34,218 nucleotides of DNA, from assembly GCA_938042265.1 (NCBI GenBank), contig CALIRN010000327.1:1-34218 (forward strand), given 5' to 3'. The position numbers were made by a program, and so were the translations under genes. The stretch's first letter is position 1, and the number at the start of each line of letters is the position of its first letter. Of this stretch, positions 4,854 to 32,849 are shown piece after piece. This stretch comes from an uncultured Eubacteriaceae bacterium. GTDB lineage: Bacteria; Bacillota; Clostridia; Lachnospirales; CAG-274. The notes under the pieces were generated by a model, which saw nothing but the letters and a program-made list of their open reading frames with translations, was not told where the DNA came from and made no database searches.

Positions 4854-5022
4854 AAACCTCACTCCTTTAATTTAATTCAAACTAATCTATTCTTATTTTA
4901 TAACAAAATCACGAAAATTAAAAGAGAAAATATTAATTTTTTATAAAAAAATTTAAAAAAATGTTGATTTAATAAATTTTTTAATCATTTTTTATAAAAA
5001 ACTGTATTTATTGCTAACTTTA

Positions 5023-5031
5023 TGTTATAAT
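5023..5031 (+). promoter_or_regulatory. Extended -10 promoter element TGTTATAAT
   Basis: A TGnTATAAT match a few nt upstream of the start of the structured element. No good -35 is present. Confidence 0.45.
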
Positions 5032-5035
5032 AAAT

Positions 5036-5196
5036 ATATACGTGTTTAGGAGCCTTAGCCTTACGGCTAATTCTCCGCAAAAGCTTTGCTTTTGCATTAT
5101 ACTACTCATAGGTCGTTAAATCCGACCTATTTCGTACCATATCCGATGAAATCAAGGTTTTCAGCCTTGTTTCCCCCTGCGGATATGGTATAATAA
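5036..5196 (+). repeat. Solo copy of the ~161-nt structured intergenic element (candidate ncRNA or leader)
   Basis: Reverse-complement match to the units at 29505-29996: same ACGTGTTTAGGAG start, same four helices, terminator-like inner hairpin, and 3' TGGTATAAT (5186-5194) 49 nt before the zapA-like ATG. Confidence 0.7.
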
Positions 5197-5242
5197 TGTA
5201 AGATATGCTTTGAAATATTTTTTTACATAAGGAGGCCGGGTA

Positions 5243-6295
5243 ATGGAGGCATCTAATCAGAAAAAACAGGTTGAAGTAGTAATAGGCGGTAAGGTTTACA
5301 GACTTGCAGGCAATGAAAGCGAGGAGTATATCCAGTCCGTTGCACATTATATTAATAAAAAGCTTGTTGAGCTAAGCAGACATAGCGCGGCAGGCATTGA
5401 GTTTACTGAAACATATCCCATATTGCTTGCCCTTAATATTGCCGATGATTTGTTTAAGGAACGCAGCAGAGATAAAAACGATGATAAGGAGCAAAATTCA
5501 GCACGGGCTGAAGCCTTGTCCGACCTTAGTGACCTGAGTAATCAGCTTGTTGAAAAAACTCATGAAATTGACGAGCTTAATAAAACCATTACTGAAAAGG
5601 ACGGTGCCATTGCCAAATATAAGGCAGCTATGCAAAGCGGCAGCGTACAGTTTGAAAACTTTAAAAAGGCTATTGCCGAAAGAGATGCGGAAATAACCAG
5701 GCTTCGCAACAGGCTTTCCGCAGCCAACAGTGATATTGCAGCACTTACCTCAAAAACCTCAGACAGCAGTATTGAAATAGGTGAGCTTAACAAAAAAATT
5801 GCCGCAAAAAACAAGGAGCTTAATTCTCTGTCAGTCAAATTGTCAGAAAAAAATGCGGCTCTCAACGAGCTTAATAAAAAGTCCGCCGAGCGCAACCAAA
5901 AGCTTAACAGTGTTAATAAGGAGCGTGACGAGCTTGCCGTAAAGCTTAAGGAAGCAAACTCCGCCATAGCTTCACTTAATAATCAGATAAATAATATTGA
6001 AAAAAGCTCAGACGGTATTAAAGATGAGCTTAACGATACAATAACCGCATTAAACCAACAGATTGAAAAGCTGAATGACGAAAAAAATGCTCTCAATGAA
6101 AAGCTTGACAAGCTGAACGGTGATTATATCGGCTTACAGCAAAGTATTCCTCAGGGTGATGCAACTGACCTGCAAAATGCTCTTAACGCCGTTAAGGCTG
6201 AAAACCATAAGCTGTACAACGACAACGAACAGCTTTTACAGGAGCTGAATCAGGCTAAGGGCGAGCTTAAAAGCTTTATTGACAGCCTGAGATAA
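5243..6295 (+). CDS. zapA: ZapA-domain cell-division protein with a long C-terminal coiled coil
   Basis: The N-terminal ~80 aa (VEVVIGGKVYRLAGNESEEYIQSVAHYINKKL...LLALNIADDL) matches the ZapA fold signature. The remaining ~260 aa are heptad-like, with E/K/L/N-rich repeats (ELNKK..). RBS AAGGAGG lies 7 nt upstream. Confidence 0.75.
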   Translation: MEASNQKKQVEVVIGGKVYRLAGNESEEYIQSVAHYINKKLVELSRHSAAGIEFTETYPILLALNIADDLFKERSRDKNDDKEQNSARAEALSDLSDLSNQLVEKTHEIDELNKTITEKDGAIAKYKAAMQSGSVQFENFKKAIAERDAEITRLRNRLSAANSDIAALTSKTSDSSIEIGELNKKIAAKNKELNSLSVKLSEKNAALNELNKKSAERNQKLNSVNKERDELAVKLKEANSAIASLNNQINNIEKSSDGIKDELNDTITALNQQIEKLNDEKNALNEKLDKLNGDYIGLQQSIPQGDATDLQNALNAVKAENHKLYNDNEQLLQELNQAKGELKSFIDSLR

Positions 6296-15814: not shown

Positions 15815-15822
15815 TTAAGCCG

Positions 15823-15843
15823 AGTCAAGGATATTCGTACTCC
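15823..15843. repeat. 21-nt perfect repeat AGTCAAGGATATTCGTACTCC (copy B), followed by a cluster of four hairpins
   Basis: Identical to 2911-2931. Downstream hairpins: GGCGAAT/ATTCGCC, CAGCGTGTCGA/TCGACACGCTG, GCGCCCCACTT/AAGTAGGGCGC, and the terminator at 15957-15986. Confidence 0.8.
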
Positions 15844-15956
15844 GCTATCGCTGCGTACTCATAACCGACGGCGAATAAATTCGCCTCAGCGTGTCGAAAA
15901 AGTCGACACGCTGAAGCGCCCCACTTAAGAAGTAGGGCGCTTACTTAGTCTGTTAA

Positions 15957-26020: not shown

Positions 26021-29000
26021 TTATTTCACTATCACGCAGCTCTCACCGCAAAGTCTCTTAAGCCCGTCCAACAGCTCATCACAGGGCTTTGCGTAATACT
26101 GGGGCGAAACACTCATACGCTTTTTTGTTTTTTCATCATAAATAATAACCTTGCTTGTGCCCCTGTTTCGTATAAGCATATTTTTTATAATTTCCATATC
26201 AACAGCTTTATCGGCAGGCAGCTTTATCCATACAGTTTTATCCGCCTCCGCCAGCTCATCATAGGCTTTGATGCCGTCAGCCACAATTTTAGGCTCCTTA
26301 CCCTCTGAAATATCTGTTCTGCCGGAAACAAGTATAACCCTGTTTTCACCCAAAATACGTGAGGAGGCTTCATAAAGCTGAGGAAACACTATAATATCTA
26401 TGCTTCCGTTTATATCCTCTAAGGTAATATAGGCCATCTTCTGATTTTTTTTGGTAAACTTAACGGACAGGTTTTCAATAATACCGCCTATTGTTACCTT
26501 TTCCTTATCCATGATTTTGCCCTGCATACCTATTTCCTCATCATTCTGCGGAAAATCCAGAGTTGTACAGGATACAAAATTTTTAAGCACAGACTCATAA
26601 GCAGCCAAAGGATGACCGCTGACATATATACCAAGCAGCTCCTTTTCCATTGACAGCAGATCCACCTTTGAAAACTCCTTTACATCCGGAAGATTATCCC
26701 TGTAAATATCCTCGGGTTTTTCCGCCGTCAGAGCAAATAAATTCATCTGACCTGCCACATTGTTACGCCTGCTCTGGCCAAGGCCGTTATGTATAAGCTT
26801 GCAAACCTGCATATACTGGGCGCGCTTACCTCCAAGGCTGTCAAAAGCGCCGCTTCGTATAAGGCTTTCAACACATTTGGTATTCATTACGGCACCCATT
26901 CTCTCCAAAAACTGGGTAAGACTTATATACGGACCATTTTTATCTCTGTCACGCACCATTGCTTCAACGGCCGCACGTCCCACACTTTTTATTGCCGCAA
27001 GACCAAAACGTATATTGCCCTCGTGCTTTGTAAACTGCGGGTAGCCGTTATTGATATCTGGCGGAAGCAGTTTAATGCCAAGCCTGCGGCACTCTGCAAT
27101 ATATTCTCTTACCTTTGTGCTGTTATCGGCAACACTGGTAAGAAGCGCCGCCATAAACTCAACAGGATAATAAGCTTTTAGCCATGCTGTCTGATAAGCC
27201 ACAACCGCATAGGCGGCCGCATGGGACTTATTAAAGGCGTACTTTGCAAAGTCCGTCATTTCATCAAAAATATGATTTGCTACATTGGCAGGTATACCGT
27301 TTTTAATACAGCCGGGTACCCCCTCCGCTTCATCACCGTTAATAAACTTCTCCCGTTCTCTCGCCATTACATCTGTCTTTTTTTTACTCATGGCACGACG
27401 TACCATATCGCTTCTGCCAAGAGAATAGCCTGCAAGCTCACGCACTATCTGCATAACCTGCTCCTGATAAACAATACAACCGTACGTGGGCTTTAAAATA
27501 GGCTCAAGACGAGGATGTGTATATTTTACGCTGTCACGGCTCCGCTTACCCTGTATATACTTTGGTATAAAATCCATAGGACCAGGACGATACAGGGAAA
27601 TACCTGCAATAATATCCTCTATATTATGAGGCTGAAGTTCCTTCATAAAGGAGGTCATACCAGGGCTTTCAAGCTGGAACACGCCTACGGTATTACCCTT
27701 TGATATAAGCTCAAACACCTTTTTATCATCATAATCAATCTTATTGGGATCATATTTTATACCGTAGTTACGCTCAACCTCCTTAAAGGCATTCTGTATA
27801 ACGGTAAGGGTTCTCAATCCCAAAAAATCCATTTTTAAGAGTCCCAGTTCCTCAATGGTGGTCATAGTAAACTGAGTTGTAACAGTACCGTCATTGGTGC
27901 TGAGTGGCACATAATCCACTACCGGTCGGTCACAGATTACCACACCTGCCGCATGAGTTGAGGAATGTCTTGGCAAGCCCTCCAGCTTGCGCGCCATATC
28001 AATCAGGTTGTGTATCTCAGGTTCATTTTCATAAATTGCCTCAAGGTCCGAATTAATTCCCATAGCCTTATCTATTGTCATTTTCAGCTCCATGGGAATC
28101 ATTTTTGCCACCCTGTCACAATCACTGTAAGGTAAATCAAGGGCTCGTCCCACATCACGAATTGCATTACGTGCCTTCATTGTACCAAAGGTAACAATCT
28201 GCGAAACCTGATCAACTCCGTACTTATCTACAACATAATCAATAACCTCCTGTCGCCTTTCATAACAGAAGTCTACGTCAATATCAGGCATACTTACACG
28301 CTCAGGGTTAAGAAAACGTTCAAAAATAAGGTCATAATGTATTGGGTCAATATCCGTAATTTTCAGGCAATAAGCAACAATACTGCCTGCTGCCGAGCCT
28401 CTGCCCGGACCTACCATAATATCGTTACGCTTTGCATAGCCTATAAAGTCCGCTACTATAAGGAAATAGTCCACAAAGCCCATCTGCTCAATTACGCTAA
28501 GCTCATACTCCAGCCTTTCCCTATGTTTCTCCGGATTATCCGGATAACGCTCCCTAAGCCCCTCATCACAAAGTCTGTGCAGATACTGTGAAGAAGTCAT
28601 ACCATCGGGCACATCAAAAACGGGCAGCTTATATTTATTAAATTCAAAGCTGACATTACATCGGCTTGCTATTAAATTGGTATTTTCACACGCCTGTCTT
28701 GCATAGGGAAAAAGGTCATACATTTCCTTTGGAGATTTAAGATAAAACTGACCGCCAAGATATCTCATACGGTTTTCATCATTAACGGTTTTTCCTGTCT
28801 GTATACAAAGCAGAATATCATGAGCTTCCGCATCCTCCGCATTAATATAATGCAAATCGTTGGTACACACAAGCGGAATACCTGTTTCATCACTCATACG
28901 CAGAAGCGCCTGATTAACCGTCTGCTGCTCCTCCATGCCATGGTCCTGCAATTCAAGATAAAAATTACCTTTACCGAATATTGCCTCATACTCCAGTGCG

Positions 29001-29476
29001 ACTTCCTTAGCTTTATCATAGCCCTGCCTTAAAACAGTGCGTGCAACGGGGCCCGCAAGGCAGGCAGACAATGCAATAACTCCCTCGTGATACTTTTCAA
29101 GCAGTTCCTTATCAACCCTGGGTTTATAGTAAAAGCCTTCCGTAAAACCGTAGGACACCATTTTTATAAGATTTTGATAGCCCTTATTATTTTCCGCAAG
29201 CAGCACAAGATGATAGTAAAAATTATCCTCTGACGCTTCCTTATTAAAACGTGAGCCTGAGGCAACATACACCTCACAGCCAATTATGGGTTTAATACCC
29301 TCCCTAAGGGCAGCCTTATAAAAGTCAATAACACCGTACATGACACCATGGTCGGTAATTGCTATTGCTTCCATCCCCAGCTCCTTTGCTCTCTTACAAA
29401 GCTCATTTATTTTTGATGAGCCGTCAAGCAAGCTGTACTCCGTATGCACATGTAAATGAGTAAATTGGTTTTCCAT
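26021..29476 (-). CDS. dnaE: DNA polymerase III alpha subunit (DnaE type)
   Basis: PHP-domain N-terminus FTHLHVHTEYSLLDGS, a polymerase core (PDIDVDF, GLLKMDFLGL) and a C-terminal OB region. 1151 aa with no PolC-type exonuclease insertion. Confidence 0.92.
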   Translation of the reverse strand: MENQFTHLHVHTEYSLLDGSSKINELCKRAKELGMEAIAITDHGVMYGVIDFYKAALREGIKPIIGCEVYVASGSRFNKEASEDNFYYHLVLLAENNKGYQNLIKMVSYGFTEGFYYKPRVDKELLEKYHEGVIALSACLAGPVARTVLRQGYDKAKEVALEYEAIFGKGNFYLELQDHGMEEQQTVNQALLRMSDETGIPLVCTNDLHYINAEDAEAHDILLCIQTGKTVNDENRMRYLGGQFYLKSPKEMYDLFPYARQACENTNLIASRCNVSFEFNKYKLPVFDVPDGMTSSQYLHRLCDEGLRERYPDNPEKHRERLEYELSVIEQMGFVDYFLIVADFIGYAKRNDIMVGPGRGSAAGSIVAYCLKITDIDPIHYDLIFERFLNPERVSMPDIDVDFCYERRQEVIDYVVDKYGVDQVSQIVTFGTMKARNAIRDVGRALDLPYSDCDRVAKMIPMELKMTIDKAMGINSDLEAIYENEPEIHNLIDMARKLEGLPRHSSTHAAGVVICDRPVVDYVPLSTNDGTVTTQFTMTTIEELGLLKMDFLGLRTLTVIQNAFKEVERNYGIKYDPNKIDYDDKKVFELISKGNTVGVFQLESPGMTSFMKELQPHNIEDIIAGISLYRPGPMDFIPKYIQGKRSRDSVKYTHPRLEPILKPTYGCIVYQEQVMQIVRELAGYSLGRSDMVRRAMSKKKTDVMAREREKFINGDEAEGVPGCIKNGIPANVANHIFDEMTDFAKYAFNKSHAAAYAVVAYQTAWLKAYYPVEFMAALLTSVADNSTKVREYIAECRRLGIKLLPPDINNGYPQFTKHEGNIRFGLAAIKSVGRAAVEAMVRDRDKNGPYISLTQFLERMGAVMNTKCVESLIRSGAFDSLGGKRAQYMQVCKLIHNGLGQSRRNNVAGQMNLFALTAEKPEDIYRDNLPDVKEFSKVDLLSMEKELLGIYVSGHPLAAYESVLKNFVSCTTLDFPQNDEEIGMQGKIMDKEKVTIGGIIENLSVKFTKKNQKMAYITLEDINGSIDIIVFPQLYEASSRILGENRVILVSGRTDISEGKEPKIVADGIKAYDELAEADKTVWIKLPADKAVDMEIIKNMLIRNRGTSKVIIYDEKTKKRMSVSPQYYAKPCDELLDGLKRLCGESCVIVK

Positions 29477-29504
29477 GGTATCACCTGCCTAAAAAATTCA
29501 TTAT

Positions 29505-29996
29505 TTAATATTGTACAATATCCGCAGGTAAAACAAAGCTGCAAGCCTTGTTTTCACCGGATATGGTGCGAAATAGGTCGGCTTTGACGCCCTATGAGCA
29601 GCATAATGCAAAATTTTACGGAGGATTAGCCGTATGCCTAAATCTCCTAAACACGTATGTGTTTATTATACCATAATCGCAACAAAAACAAGGCCGGAGG
29701 CTTTGTTTTTGCAGATTATGGTACGAAACAGGTCGGCTTTGTCACCTGTGAGTAGTATAATGCGAAAGCTCTGCTTTTGCGGAGAGTCAGCCGACAGGCT
29801 GAGGCTCCTAAACACGTATGTGTTTATTATACCATAATCGCAACAAAAACAAGGCCGGAGGCTTTGTTTTTGCAGATTATGGTACGAAACAGGTCGGCTT
29901 TGTCACCTGTGAGTAGTATAATGCGAAAGCTCTGCTTTTGCGGAGAGTCAGCCGACAGGCTGAGGCTCCTAAACACGTATGTGTTTATTATACCAC
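29505..29996 (-). repeat. Head-to-tail array (161-bp period, about 3 units) of a structured element; candidate tandem sRNA cassettes or stacked dnaE leader
   Basis: 29644-29804 and 29805-29965 read as identical, and the match continues to about 29996. A diverged unit lies at about 29505-29660. Each unit has four helices, a terminator-like hairpin (29682-29710, 29843-29871) and TGGTATAAT (-10 hexamers at 29665-29670, 29826-29831, 29987-29992). Confidence 0.8.
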
Positions 29997-30078
29997 AGTC
30001 GGCGACAAATAAAAAGAGTTATTGTTTAATAAAAATACACCAAAGCTTAAACCAAAGCAGACAGACAGCTTTTGTATA

Positions 30079-30105
30079 TAAAAAAGGTGCCGCAATGCGA
30101 CACCC
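30079..30105 (-). terminator. Intrinsic terminator of the infC-rpmI-rplT operon
   Basis: Minus strand reads GGTGTCGCATTGCGGCACC followed by TTTTTT, about 20 nt after the rplT stop. Confidence 0.75.
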
Positions 30106-30122
30106 TAAATAGCAAATAAATA

Positions 30123-30476
30123 TTAAAGAGCAGCCTTAGCTGTTTCCGCAAGCTTAGTAAAAGCAGCAGCATCATTTACGGCAAGCTCGGCAAGCATCTT
30201 TCTGTTGATGTTTACATTAGCATTCTTAAGACCGTTCATAAACTTGCTGTACGAAAGACCATTCATTCTTGCAGCAGCATTGATACGTACAATCCAAAGT
30301 CTTCTGTAAGCTCTCTTAGTCTGTTTTCTGCCTGCAAAGCTGTGAGCCATAGCTCTCATAACAGACTGCTTTGCAACTCTGTACTGCTTACTTCTTGCGC
30401 CTACAAAGCCCTTAGCCATCTTTAAAACTTTCTTATGCTTTTTACGTGCGTTTAATGCACCTTTAACTCTAGCCAT
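30123..30476 (-). CDS. rplT: 50S ribosomal protein L20
   Basis: [37 protein letters not shown] is the canonical L20 sequence. Confidence 0.95.
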
Positions 30477-30497
30477 TTCAACAAATCCTCCTAAAAA

Positions 30498-30695
30498 TTA
30501 GATATATGGTAACTCTTTTCTCATTGCCTTGATATTGGTTGAATCAACAACAGTTGACTTTCTTAAGCCGCGAAGTCTTTTACTGTTCTTCTTAGTGAGA
30601 ATATGCTGCTTGTTAGCCTTAGTTCTCTTAATCTTACCTGTACCTGTAGCTGAAACTCTTTTGGCAACAGCCTTTCTTGTCTTTAATTTAGGCAT
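30498..30695 (-). CDS. rpmI: 50S ribosomal protein L35
   Basis: MPKLKTRKAVAKRV..TGTGKIKR..A.KQHILTKK is the canonical L35 sequence. Confidence 0.95.
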   Translation of the reverse strand: MPKLKTRKAVAKRVSATGTGKIKRTKANKQHILTKKNSKRLRGLRKSTVVDSTNIKAMRKELPYI

Positions 30696-30843
30696 ATCAA
30701 ATGTCCTCCTTGGAAATTATTAAATAAATAGTTGAGCAATGCACCCGATTTAAAGTATCGTGTCAAAGGCAAAAGCGGCTTTCGTCATCAATTTCCTTCC
30801 GACTGCGTATAACCTATGGCATTGAAAATGCTTGCCGGTTACA

Positions 30844-31353
30844 TTAATTTTTAGGTGCAAGGAACATTGCCATAGTTCTTGCTTCCATCTTAGGTTCTTT
30901 ATCAACCACACCGAATTCGGCAACCTGCTGTGCAAAGTCCTTCATAATATCTACAGCAACGTCAGTTCTTGCCATTTCACGACCTCTGAAACGAATGCTG
31001 ATTTTTACCTTGTTGCCCTCTTTAAGGAATTTTATAGCATTTTTAACCTTTACCTGCACATCATGTGTATCAATATTAGGTGACAGACGTAACTCTTTAA
31101 CCGAAACAGTTTTCTGCTTTTTACGAGCTTCCTTCTCCTTCTTCGCCTGGTCAAACTTATATTTACTGTAATCCATAATTTTGCACACAGGTGGTTTAGC
31201 CTGAGGGGAAATTTTTACAAGGTCAAGCTGTTTTTCCTCAGCCATTTTTCTTGCTTCCTTACCGGAAACAATACCGACCTGCTCGCCTGTATCGCTGATA
31301 AGACGTACTTCTTTATCCCTGATCTGTTCGTTAATCATTAAATCTGTAATAAT
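30844..31353 (-). CDS. infC: Translation initiation factor IF-3, probable ATT start
   Basis: INEQIRDKEVRLISDTGEQVGIV...KISIRFRGREM are IF-3 motifs. GGAGGTG (31357-31363) is followed 3 nt later by ATT ATT (31353/31350). The first ATG (31338) lies 18 nt from the RBS. Confidence 0.88.
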   Translation of the reverse strand: MITDLMINEQIRDKEVRLISDTGEQVGIVSGKEARKMAEEKQLDLVKISPQAKPPVCKIMDYSKYKFDQAKKEKEARKKQKTVSVKELRLSPNIDTHDVQVKVKNAIKFLKEGNKVKISIRFRGREMARTDVAVDIMKDFAQQVAEFGVVDKEPKMEARTMAMFLAPKN

Positions 31354-31522
31354 TGACACCTCCAATATAATAAATGACTTTTTGTTATGCTGTAATAAAA
31401 AAAACAGAGCCCAAAGCTCTGCCTCCATTAACTTATACATAACCACAGGTAATGTGAATATGAAAATGGTTTAACCTTAAAGCCTTGACCGTAAGGTGAG
31501 AAGTGAGCTTCTTCTTTACAAC
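31354..31522 (-). promoter_or_regulatory. infC leader with attenuator, probably an L20-responsive leader
   Basis: About 170 nt of transcribed leader between the consensus promoter and infC. It contains a terminator, CAGAGC-TTTG-GGCTCTG plus TTTTTTTT (31397-31422). Position and architecture match the Firmicutes L20 leader, but I could not verify the sequence family. Confidence 0.5.
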
Positions 31523-31528
31523 AAAAAG

Positions 31529-31557
31529 ATTATATCACTCCTCAGCCTCAATGTCAA
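31529..31557 (-). promoter_or_regulatory. Consensus sigma-A promoter TTGACA - 17 nt - TATAAT for the infC operon
   Basis: Minus strand reads TTGACAttgaggctgaggagtgaTATAAT, perfect in both hexamers and in spacing. Confidence 0.75.
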
Positions 31558-31586
31558 GGATTATTTTGTAAAATATCTATTCACCT

Positions 31587-32849
31587 TCATTGTTTATAAA
31601 ACTCATTATATAAGCGCTCCTCAACTTCATCAAGCGTCATTTTTCCATAAAGATAATAAGTACTTTCATTTATAAAGCTTAAGTATACATCCTCTGCCTC
31701 AAATACCGTATTCATTTTTGATAAATACTCCTGGTTATCAGCAATCTGCTGATTTGCATCTGCTGCAAGATCATTAAGCATATCCTCATGCTCCAAAACC
31801 TCAAGGGCACTGTCACTTATCGGTATACCCTTTTCATCTTTTTGCAGAAGTGCCATTTCCCTACTGTTAATCAAAAATTCCAAAAGCCTTGCAGCAGCCT
31901 CAGGTTCCTCAGTGTGTTTGCTTATAGCATACATAGTGGCAGGCTTAACATACCAGCCAAGCCTTTTTACATATTCTGCTCTCGGATAAGCCCCCACAAC
32001 CACATTTGCGCCCCTTTCAATCAATATACTGCAATAGCTGTCCACATCGCTTACCCAGCCAACAGTTGCCCCTGCCTTACCCTGCGAAAACAAATTCCTG
32101 TCATATTGCTGTACGGGTGGCATAACCCTTTCATCAATTAGGCGTTTATAAAACTTAAGCATATACCCGATATCCTCTTTTGTCAGCAAAAGTCTGCCGT
32201 CTTCATCACAGGCTGATTTACCCGTAGTCTGCTCAAAATATGACAGCACAAAAAAGAATGCCGCCTTATCACCCATACCTATAGGATAAATGCCGTCCTT
32301 ACCCATTATCTTTGCCGCAGCAAAGAAGTCCTCCCACGTCGTAGGCAAAGGTATATTGTATTTATCATACAAGTCCTTATTATAATATAGTGTTTCAACA
32401 TTAAATGCAATTGGTATGGCATTAAGGTGTCCGTTTACCTCGCCATATGCAAGCTCCTCATCAGTAAAGGTCGATAAGTCCACATAGTCCGTAAGGTCAT
32501 AAATATCGTAAAATCCATCACCCTCCGGGGAGTAATCTGATATCCACGAATAATTAATCAGCATAACATCAGGTTCATCATTTGACTTCATAAATATATT
32601 CTGTCGCTTGCTGTAGCCATTCCAGATGCCGTATTTACATTCAACCCTTATATCCTCATTAAGCTGTTCAAATACGCTAACCCCCTCCATCATATACGTA
32701 TGTCTGCTGTCGCCGCCCCACCATGACAGGCTTATATGTTTTGTATTAAGCTGCTCCTCAACCACATTATCCCCGTCCGAACAGCCAAACATATTAAAGG
32801 CTAAAACGATACATAATGCAGCAGAAAAAAGCCCTTTAATTTTTTTCAT
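31587..32849 (-). CDS. Extracellular solute-binding lipoprotein (ABC SBP family 1-like), orphan
   Basis: MKKIKGLFSAALCIVLAFNMFGCS is a lipoprotein signal. The rest is a sugar-type SBP-like sequence of ~420 aa. The ATG at 32849 is preceded by AAGAGG. No permease or ATPase gene follows. Confidence 0.7.
   Translation of the reverse strand: MKKIKGLFSAALCIVLAFNMFGCSDGDNVVEEQLNTKHISLSWWGGDSRHTYMMEGVSVFEQLNEDIRVECKYGIWNGYSKRQNIFMKSNDEPDVMLINYSWISDYSPEGDGFYDIYDLTDYVDLSTFTDEELAYGEVNGHLNAIPIAFNVETLYYNKDLYDKYNIPLPTTWEDFFAAAKIMGKDGIYPIGMGDKAAFFFVLSYFEQTTGKSACDEDGRLLLTKEDIGYMLKFYKRLIDERVMPPVQQYDRNLFSQGKAGATVGWVSDVDSYCSILIERGANVVVGAYPRAEYVKRLGWYVKPATMYAISKHTEEPEAAARLLEFLINSREMALLQKDEKGIPISDSALEVLEHEDMLNDLAADANQQIADNQEYLSKMNTVFEAEDVYLSFINESTYYLYGKMTLDEVEERLYNEFYKQ

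Follow-up and report, generated by a model that had tools for sequence, protein, structure and literature searches.

A putative mobile promoter repeat located at -10 boxes upstream of zapA and dnaE in uncultured gut Clostridia

We analyzed a 34,218-nucleotide contig of an uncultured Eubacteriaceae bacterium (CALIRN010000327.1; hereafter the window), in which a non-coding element of ~161 nt recurs upstream of two unrelated genes: as a solo copy in front of a ZapA-like gene, and as an array of three units in front of dnaE. The reading that we favor, at a probability of roughly 0.55, is that this element represents a new family of ~161 bp non-coding interspersed “mobile promoter” repeats, which are copied into -10 boxes and supply the promoter anew. 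Its unit consists of a five-hairpin body (P0 to P4) bounded on each side by the extended -10 motif TRTGGTATAAT. Each copy is placed precisely on the -10 box of a putative resident sigma-A promoter and points in its direction.

The solo copy extends, from -10 box to -10 box, over positions 5026-5194 (+), a unit of ~161 nt, or 169 nt with both boxes. An earlier note on this DNA, made from the letters alone, had located it correctly but with bounds of 5036-5196, which we replace. The downstream ZapA-like gene (5243-6295, +; 350 aa, PF05164 plus coiled coil) is the first in a zapA/U32/FtsW/PBP operon. The array lies on the opposite strand at 29510-29997 (-), where the units u1 (29992-29826), u2 (29831-29665) and u3 (29670-29510, nearest dnaE) follow each other head-to-tail, with -10 boxes at 29997-29987, 29836-29826, 29675-29665 and 29520-29510, the last being TATTGTACAAT. 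Downstream of it is dnaE (26021-29476, -), which encodes the 1151-aa alpha subunit of DNA polymerase III. Units u1 and u2 are identical, and Tandem Repeats Finder (TRF) reports for the array a period of 161 with 2.2 copies at 100%; u3 carries a 7-nt deletion in P2 and is 74% identical to u1 and 82% identical to the zapA copy over ~165 nt. Overall, the zapA copy shares 79-82% identity with the dnaE-side units across ~175 nt (blastn E values of 1e-35 to 2e-45 within the 34-kb window), and it scores 178 bits with our covariance model R1. The array is also present in L021/L030 (L-numbers label the related loci and contigs that we compared with the window).

Relatives that lack the element allowed us to place both insertions to the base. 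At the zapA operon, the left flank is a native extended -10 box at 5021-5031 (+), TATGTTATAAT, which matches TRTGNTATAAT and serves as the left direct repeat. This box and ~60 nt upstream of it are conserved in element-free relatives, reading TATGTTATAAT in L011, TATGATATAAT in L008 and TATGCTATAAT in L012. The right direct repeat is an element-borne extended -10 box at 5184-5194 (+), TATGGTATAAT. Within these two boxes lie the motifs already pointed out in the earlier note, TGTTATAAT at 5023-5031 and TGGTATAAT at 5186-5194, the latter indeed ending 49 nt short of the ATG (5243). Collinearity between the window and L011 extends through TATGTTATAAT; the empty site of L011 reads ...AACTTTATGTTATAAT|AGATATATATT..AGGAGG..ATG, and the window has that left flank too, then the element, then the native untranslated region (UTR). 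Past the terminal TATGGTATAAT, the window continues with GATATGCTTTGAAATATTTTTTTACATAAGGAGG, which is homologous to the native 5' UTR of L008 and L012, within ~10 nt. Relative to the orthologous empty sites, the native box TATGTTATAAT is thus displaced 163 nt further upstream.

The closest relatives, L008, L011 and L012 (ZapA 75-81% identical), have no element upstream of zapA, nor did nhmmer find one in L008-L012, and they retain the divergent neighbor gene, the operon and its promoter (TTTATGTTATAAT in L011, TTTATGATATAAT in L008 and TTTATGCTATAAT in L012). The suggestion that the element supplies the promoter of the division operon is plausible and gains strength from the position of the 3' TATGGTATAAT directly before the native 5' UTR; the box at 5184-5194 is likely the working promoter of the zapA operon. 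This intergenic region is an indel hotspot in the absence of the element too, with other lineage-specific inserts in close relatives: in L012 (about 190-520), ~330 nt separate the conserved -10 box from the ribosome-binding site, and L008 (2613-2730) has a lineage-specific insert of ~120 nt upstream.

The dnaE locus gave a similar picture. The closest relative there, L027 (DnaE 85% identical), has an empty site reading CTCTTTTTATTTTAACTTGTATATGGTATAAT|ATTATCAT..., where the window reads CTCTTTTTATTTGTCGCCGACTGTGGTATAAT|three unitsTATTGTACAAT|ATTAAATAATG... On the left, CTCTTTTTATTT...TGTGGTATAAT of the window matches CTCTTTTTATTT...TATGGTATAAT of L027; on the right, the sequence after TATTGTACAAT (ATTA...AGGCAGGTGATAC) matches the native UTR of both L027 and L023. 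Five related lineages lack the element in front of dnaE (L023/L031-34/L039, L024, L027, L028 and L029), and a sister species whose L20 protein is identical has the empty site in each of its five assemblies. In its ancestral form, the dnaE box probably read T(A/G)TGGTATAAT, which would match the element ends at 10-11 of 11 positions; the zapA box matches them at 10 of 11.

Beyond the window, we recovered further copies, bringing the known total to 10 copies at five loci in three genomes or metagenome-assembled genomes (MAGs). The MAG MGYG-HGUT-04429 contains a solo copy (L014) upstream of a gene for a secreted or transmembrane protein, and two tandem, mutually different copies (L016) upstream of an SNF-type symporter gene. 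L026 (GCA_965312425.1), found via DnaE relatives, has one full and one 3'-truncated copy before dnaE. In the truncated copy (L026b; L026 1319-1462), a deletion has taken away the 3' -10 box along with the 3' half of P4, fusing the body to the ribosome-binding region of dnaE; this copy is decaying, and dnaE in that genome must, on this layout, be transcribed through the element body, as a predicted part of its 5' UTR. A survey of the genes downstream of copies, as proposed in the earlier note, thus returned zapA, dnaE, the symporter gene and the secreted or transmembrane protein gene, which are unrelated. Together with the empty zapA and dnaE sites of the closest relatives, this leaves unsupported the idea that the two loci of the window share a regulatory input for replication and division.

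The copies also differ in how they relate to one another. Two copies from another MAG, at unrelated loci, are closer to unit u1 (L014, 95% identical; L016b, 92%) than its array neighbor u3 is (74%). Arrays therefore reflect, at least partly, successive arrivals of different subfamilies and not only local duplication, while the identical pair u1/u2 could be the product of either.

Additional searches indicated that the family is narrowly distributed, in a few uncultured gut Clostridia related to Lachnospirales. The window itself is a contig from a human-gut metagenome, belonging to an uncultured Clostridium. The relatives of ZapA and DnaE are labeled Lachnospirales or Clostridiales, with the DnaE of [Clostridium] colinum 64% identical. 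No additional copy was recovered by model R1 across ~250 kb (the window together with related loci). Exact-pattern scans were negative for the 5' block in genome and metagenome contigs, for a mid-block pattern in metagenome contigs, and for three patterns in viral contigs; only the 3'-block pattern CCGACCTNTTTCGNACCATA recovered copies, in genome contigs, where six of its eight matches were chance hits in unrelated phyla. There were no blastn matches in plasmid and phage collections, and a chimeric six-frame “protein” query returned nothing. Rfam 15 has no match anywhere in the window at the gathering threshold, and in 4900-5300 and 29400-31700 permissive E-values brought up nothing meaningful on the element. 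A HMMER search of 1.84 billion representatives with an 85-aa antisense frame retrieved only the window's own 67-aa open reading frame (ORF) P0034, so that the element is either rare or rarely called as a gene. P0034 (29634-29837, +) runs antisense within the dnaE array and is deposited as a predicted protein (NCBI, MGnify, ENA); with no relatives among these representatives, it is an artefact that the repeat produced in gene calling.

One weak R1 match, at 31384-31534 (-), was rejected as a copy, since it corresponds to the L20 leader of infC (RF00558, 36.6 bits). The leader itself spans 31390-31522 (-) upstream of infC-rpmI-rplT, scores below the Rfam gathering score of 58.7 bits, and is preceded by a TTGACA-17-TATAAT promoter.

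The repeat also leaves its mark on assemblies: short-read assemblies of the species break inside the dnaE array, and Logan unitigs break inside the zapA copy. Independent assemblies (L001-L007, L021-L022, L035-L038) end alike, at 29750-30000, at 5039-5056 and at the window ends 1 and 34218, pointing to more repeats, or to DNA that varies between strains, immediately beyond the window.

Examining all inserts together revealed a common layout. Each has native sequence upstream of a TRTGnTATAAT box on its left and the native 5' UTR on its right, a -10 box on both sides and between units, and the orientation of the resident promoter. Seven occurrences of TRTGNTATAAT, the known extended -10 or “-16 region” motif of Gram-positive promoters, stand in the window where 0.47 would be expected; the element accounts for five of these. 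In L016, a TTGTCA -35 hexamer precedes the leftmost TATAAT by 17 nt. In every case the flanking direct repeat consists of the -10 region; its length varies, from GGTAT (5 nt) in L016 to 13 nt at zapA and 17-18 nt in L014. Reading the ends revealed no terminal inverted repeats, as the left end TATAATAAACACATACG does not match the reverse complement of the right end ATTATACCATAATCGC; P4, the sole long inverted repeat, is confined to the 3' third of the unit. The variable flanking repeat and the absence of terminal inverted repeats make for a poor fit to a classical MITE (miniature inverted-repeat transposable element) with a fixed target duplication. The earlier note had held that randomly oriented copies with target-site duplications would point to a MITE: the copies do have flanking direct repeats, as mobile elements do, but their orientation is never random relative to the promoter hit. 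Like MITEs, they are dispersed and differ in presence, with empty sites in relatives and five loci in three genomes.

We next describe the body of the element, in which RNAalifold, applied to the distinct copies, found five hairpins in a row, with an unpaired 12-nt linker between P2 and P3. In the zapA copy, P0 (5031-5048, +; AAAUAUA/UGUGUUU) begins at the final base of the -10 box and includes two G-U pairs; its consensus is AAACAC/GUGUUU, and L026a keeps it in a shifted register. P1 (5049-5076, +) has an outer stem GGAG..CUCC, which is altered in L026, and an inner stem whose consensus is UCAGCC/GGCUGA. P2 (5077-5095, +; GCAAAAGC-UUU-GCUUUUGC) has a nearly invariant stem. The linker J2/3 (5096-5107, +; AUUAUACUACUC) is conserved, unpaired in all folds and reads TATAAT on the opposite strand; its GCATTAT and CTCA are invariant across eight copies. 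P3 (5108-5130, +; AUAGGUCG-loop-CGACCUAU) has a loop of non-conserved sequence and the consensus stem ACAGGUCG/CGACCUGU, which becomes AUAGGCGG/CUGCCUAU in L016a and AUAGGUUGC/GCAACCUAU in L026a. Finally, the long hairpin P4 (5134-5191, +) encloses an inner hairpin, CAAGG-UUUUCAG-CCUUG, in an outer stem GUACCAUAUCCG/CGGAUAUGGUAU (consensus ACCAUAAUC-GC/GCGAUUAUGGU, around an A/U-rich inner hairpin). Its fold energies are -16 to -25 kcal/mol, and its 3' arm overlaps the TRTG portion of the 3' -10 box.

Covariation was assessed on seven distinct copies from three genomes, comprising 57 pairs. Standard pairs make up 95.2% of the cells, and both partners have changed in 10 pairs (19 cells); across 500 shuffles these values were never reached, and controls with slid partners were 35-43% paired. 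In P1, pair 31/44 is C-G in four copies and U-A in three, and pair 25/50 is G-C in six and A-U in one. Three of the eight P3 pairs changed on both sides, with 98% of cells paired. The covarying pairs of the P4 outer stem are 117/159 (U-A in four, A-U in three) and 118/158 (U-A in five, C-G in two). All four compensatory differences that had been listed between the zapA copy and the array units hold: UUAGCC/GGCUAA versus UCAGCC/GGCUGA in P1, AUAGG/CCUAU versus ACAGG/CCUGU in P3, AUAUCC/GGAUAU versus AUAAUC/GAUUAU in the P4 outer stem, and the inner P4 hairpin, which differs in sequence between copies and stays paired. The proposal of selection on secondary structure is thereby supported, by covariation in P1, P3 and P4 and, more weakly, in P0.

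Which strand and which molecule fold is harder to tell. For the zapA copy, the fold energy is -61 kcal/mol (z = -8.9 relative to shuffles); its opposite strand folds almost equally well (z = -7.4). The earlier note had left the strand unsettled, and scoring covariation on each strand agrees: wobble cells number 15 G-U versus 8 A-C, in 8 columns each, pairing is 95.2% in sense and 93.4% in antisense, and the wobble count discriminates neither between strands nor between RNA and DNA. The extent of the folded form is clearer. P0 begins inside the -10 box, the outer 3' arm of P4 lies beyond the U run, and both stems covary, so that the selected single-stranded form spans the whole unit. It is a read-through leader RNA or single-stranded DNA, and not just a small RNA (sRNA) from promoter to terminator.

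Other interpretations of the body were rejected. Protein coding fails: some units have open frames, and indels put those frames out of register in other units. The P0 palindrome AAACAC-N4-GTGTTT might have been a repressor operator; it is asymmetric in the zapA copy, where G-U pairing is kept, and its spacing is altered in L026a, which fits a hairpin better than a protein site. Resemblances to integron attC, to dif/Xer sites and to NrdR or LexA boxes were weighed, and none fits the sequence.

How might such a unit move? In the favored mobile promoter reading, recombination or replication template-switching would copy it, the exchange taking place between the -10 boxes at its ends and a similar resident one, and no dedicated cut-and-paste transposase with a fixed target duplication would be required. 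Such an exchange between -10 boxes would explain the orientation, the variable length of the flanking repeat and the arrays, all without a transposase. The resident promoter would then transcribe into the element, and the 3' -10 box, which is present in the sequence, would restore a promoter before the gene. Through this box and read-through, essential genes such as dnaE would stay expressed. The hairpin body would be transcribed within a long leader, or as an RNA of ~140 nt stopped at the weak inner hairpin of P4. The element's own -10 boxes offer further targets, giving rise to the head-to-tail arrays of different subfamilies that we observed.

Several observations weigh against this account. 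Just 10 copies at five loci in three genomes or MAGs were found; the same insertions occur in all assemblies of the window's species; and the loci compared contain neither an excision product nor an insertion newly gained between strains, nor an associated enzyme. TRTGnTATAAT is simply the promoter consensus, and two independent promoters, instead of a trace of the insertion process, could account for the “direct repeat”. At three of the five loci, which are intergenic regions of the divergent type, an orientation in sense to the downstream gene is nearly automatic, and the dnaE insertions of the window and of L026 may go back to one ancestral event. Consensus promoter and terminator scans call neither feature at the element, because its -35 hexamers are poor and its inner stem is mismatched.

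A different reading, which we consider unlikely, takes each unit as an independent sRNA gene with its own promoter and intrinsic terminator, acting in trans through the unpaired 12-nt linker, spread by duplication and upstream of other genes only incidentally. Every unit does start with TGGTATAAT and includes a hairpin with UUGUUUUU behind it, ~15 nt ahead of the next -10 box, and the linker GCAUUAUACUACUCA is nearly invariant though unpaired. Tandem arrays, moreover, are known in sRNA families such as Listeria LhrC. However, an RNA running from ~7 nt past the -10 box to the U run would miss the 5' arm of P0 and the outer 3' arm of P4, both of which are maintained, the P4 outer stem with two doubly changed pairs. 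The inner hairpin, which had been described as terminator-like, is called by the terminator scan in no copy, and the zapA copy has lost the U run, with UUUCCCCC where it would be expected. Wobble pairs show no preference for the sense strand, and the exact placement at resident -10 boxes would be left unexplained.

Distinctly improbable, in our assessment, is a non-autonomous element moved in trans by a transposase acting on single-stranded DNA hairpins, of the IS200/IS605 PATE or REP/RAYT type, and inserted beside TATAAT. Five conserved hairpins with no clear strand-specific wobble bias (the 15 G-U versus 8 A-C cells above) are what a DNA structure would give; insertion beside one short specific sequence, with neither a fixed target duplication nor terminal inverted repeats, agrees as well; and tandem insertion is possible, the target being recreated at the element end. 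Yet the ends of IS200/IS605 elements bear similar hairpins, and in our element the end hairpins, P0/P1 and P4, are dissimilar in sequence; the insertion beside TATAAT does fit a PATE. GC skew is negative throughout the window, yet the zapA and dnaE copies are oppositely oriented, which suggests, from these two loci only, that orientation follows the promoter and not the direction of replication. The Pfam listings of the window and of the fetched loci contain no transposase or recombinase label, although unannotated ORFs were not scanned.

The last alternative, hinted at in the earlier note and in our view very improbable, is a conserved cis-regulatory leader (riboswitch or attenuator) tying dnaE and the division operon to a common signal: the element does immediately precede both genes, in their sense orientation, and has a covarying structure, but the orthologous loci of the closest relatives are element-free, further copies precede a transporter gene and a secreted-protein gene, the -10 box after each unit would bypass such a leader, Rfam holds no match, and loci have one, two or three units, so that the comparative data already largely refute it.

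Going one step beyond the mobile promoter reading, we tentatively raise a more doubtful extension, namely that the element, a 161-bp module, is a transposase-independent “promoter-homing” replicator that attaches at the universal sigma-A extended -10 box. Through template switching or recombination between -10 boxes, it would place copies of itself in strong promoters and compensate the host with a promoter, and its arrays would yield structured RNA.

Two further observations concern other parts of the window. A motif of 41-45 nt, AAGCnnAGTCAAGGATATTCGTACTCC...CGTA, occurs at 2905-2945 and 15817-15857 (+), with 83% identity, in two otherwise unrelated intergenic spots, one beside an Alg14-like gene and one just after an EamA gene; it may represent another short repeat family. 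Within the ZapA-like gene, internal repeats of ~43 nt at 5569-6064 (+; GAGCTTAA[CT]AA...) encode a long coiled-coil tail after the ZapA domain, an architecture common only to close relatives.

If the mobile promoter reading is true, a repeat has delivered the promoters that now drive a division operon and an essential replication gene in this gut bacterium, with a structured leader or an sRNA added. No new regulatory link between replication and division is revealed. For genome reconstruction, the repeat matters as it breaks short-read assemblies at its loci. Promoter-homing, if true, would be a distinct route for the spread of selfish DNA and for the rewiring of promoters and leaders.

The element can be compared with four described systems. 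The first is the putative mobile promoters (PMPs) of Matus-Garcia, Nijveen and van Passel (2012), which are highly similar non-coding sequences upstream of non-homologous genes in one genome, with a mechanism of movement that is not known and mostly no Rfam match (PMC3575422). Their criterion, as given there, asks that non-paralogous genes in one genome have upstream regions (-150 to -50) at least 80% identical over 50 nt or more (PMC3575422). The zapA copy and u3 are 82% identical across the whole unit, and ZapA and DnaE are unrelated; under this definition the element counts as a PMP. Whereas PMPs are defined by -150 to -50 similarity alone, for the present element the boundaries, flanking -10 boxes, empty sites, mixed arrays and covarying body are resolved. 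Empty and filled sites at the level of single bases show how a “mobile promoter” lands, a point that catalogues based only on similarity left open.

By analogy, the functionally closest systems appear to be the Neisseria REP2 (CREN) and the Borrelia IR-A/IR-B repeats, which are intergenic repeats of ~120-150 bp with no terminal inverted repeats (PMC3184786). As in these, internal stem-loops are present, a promoter is carried and the position is immediately upstream of unrelated genes (PMC3184786). [quoted passage not shown] REP2 also has no sequence relationship to the element, belongs to another host phylum, and is not reported to form tandem arrays split by -10 boxes.

The Correia elements of Neisseria (CREE/NEMIS) belong to the MITEs proper: their 26-bp terminal inverted repeats fold into one long hairpin, and they duplicate a TA target; in contrast, our element has no terminal inverted repeats, has five hairpins, and is flanked by repeats of 5-18 nt that are the -10 box. 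Correia elements, of ~100-155 bp, create or carry promoters, are co-transcribed with adjacent genes and vary in location between close relatives (PMC3575422, PMC3184786). The bcr1 repeats (~155 bp), from Firmicutes of the Bacillus cereus group, are transcribed, not conserved in distribution, and keep a multi-stem structure through compensatory changes (PMC3184786). Unlike our element, bcr1 has a constant 5-bp direct repeat and many copies per genome, and is not tied to -10 boxes or to promoter orientation. The present element therefore shares with bcr1 its compensatory structure maintenance and patchy distribution, and with Correia elements the delivery of promoters; it is set apart from all four systems by its -10-box bounds, the intact native UTR and ribosome-binding site, its heterogeneous arrays and its five-hairpin body.

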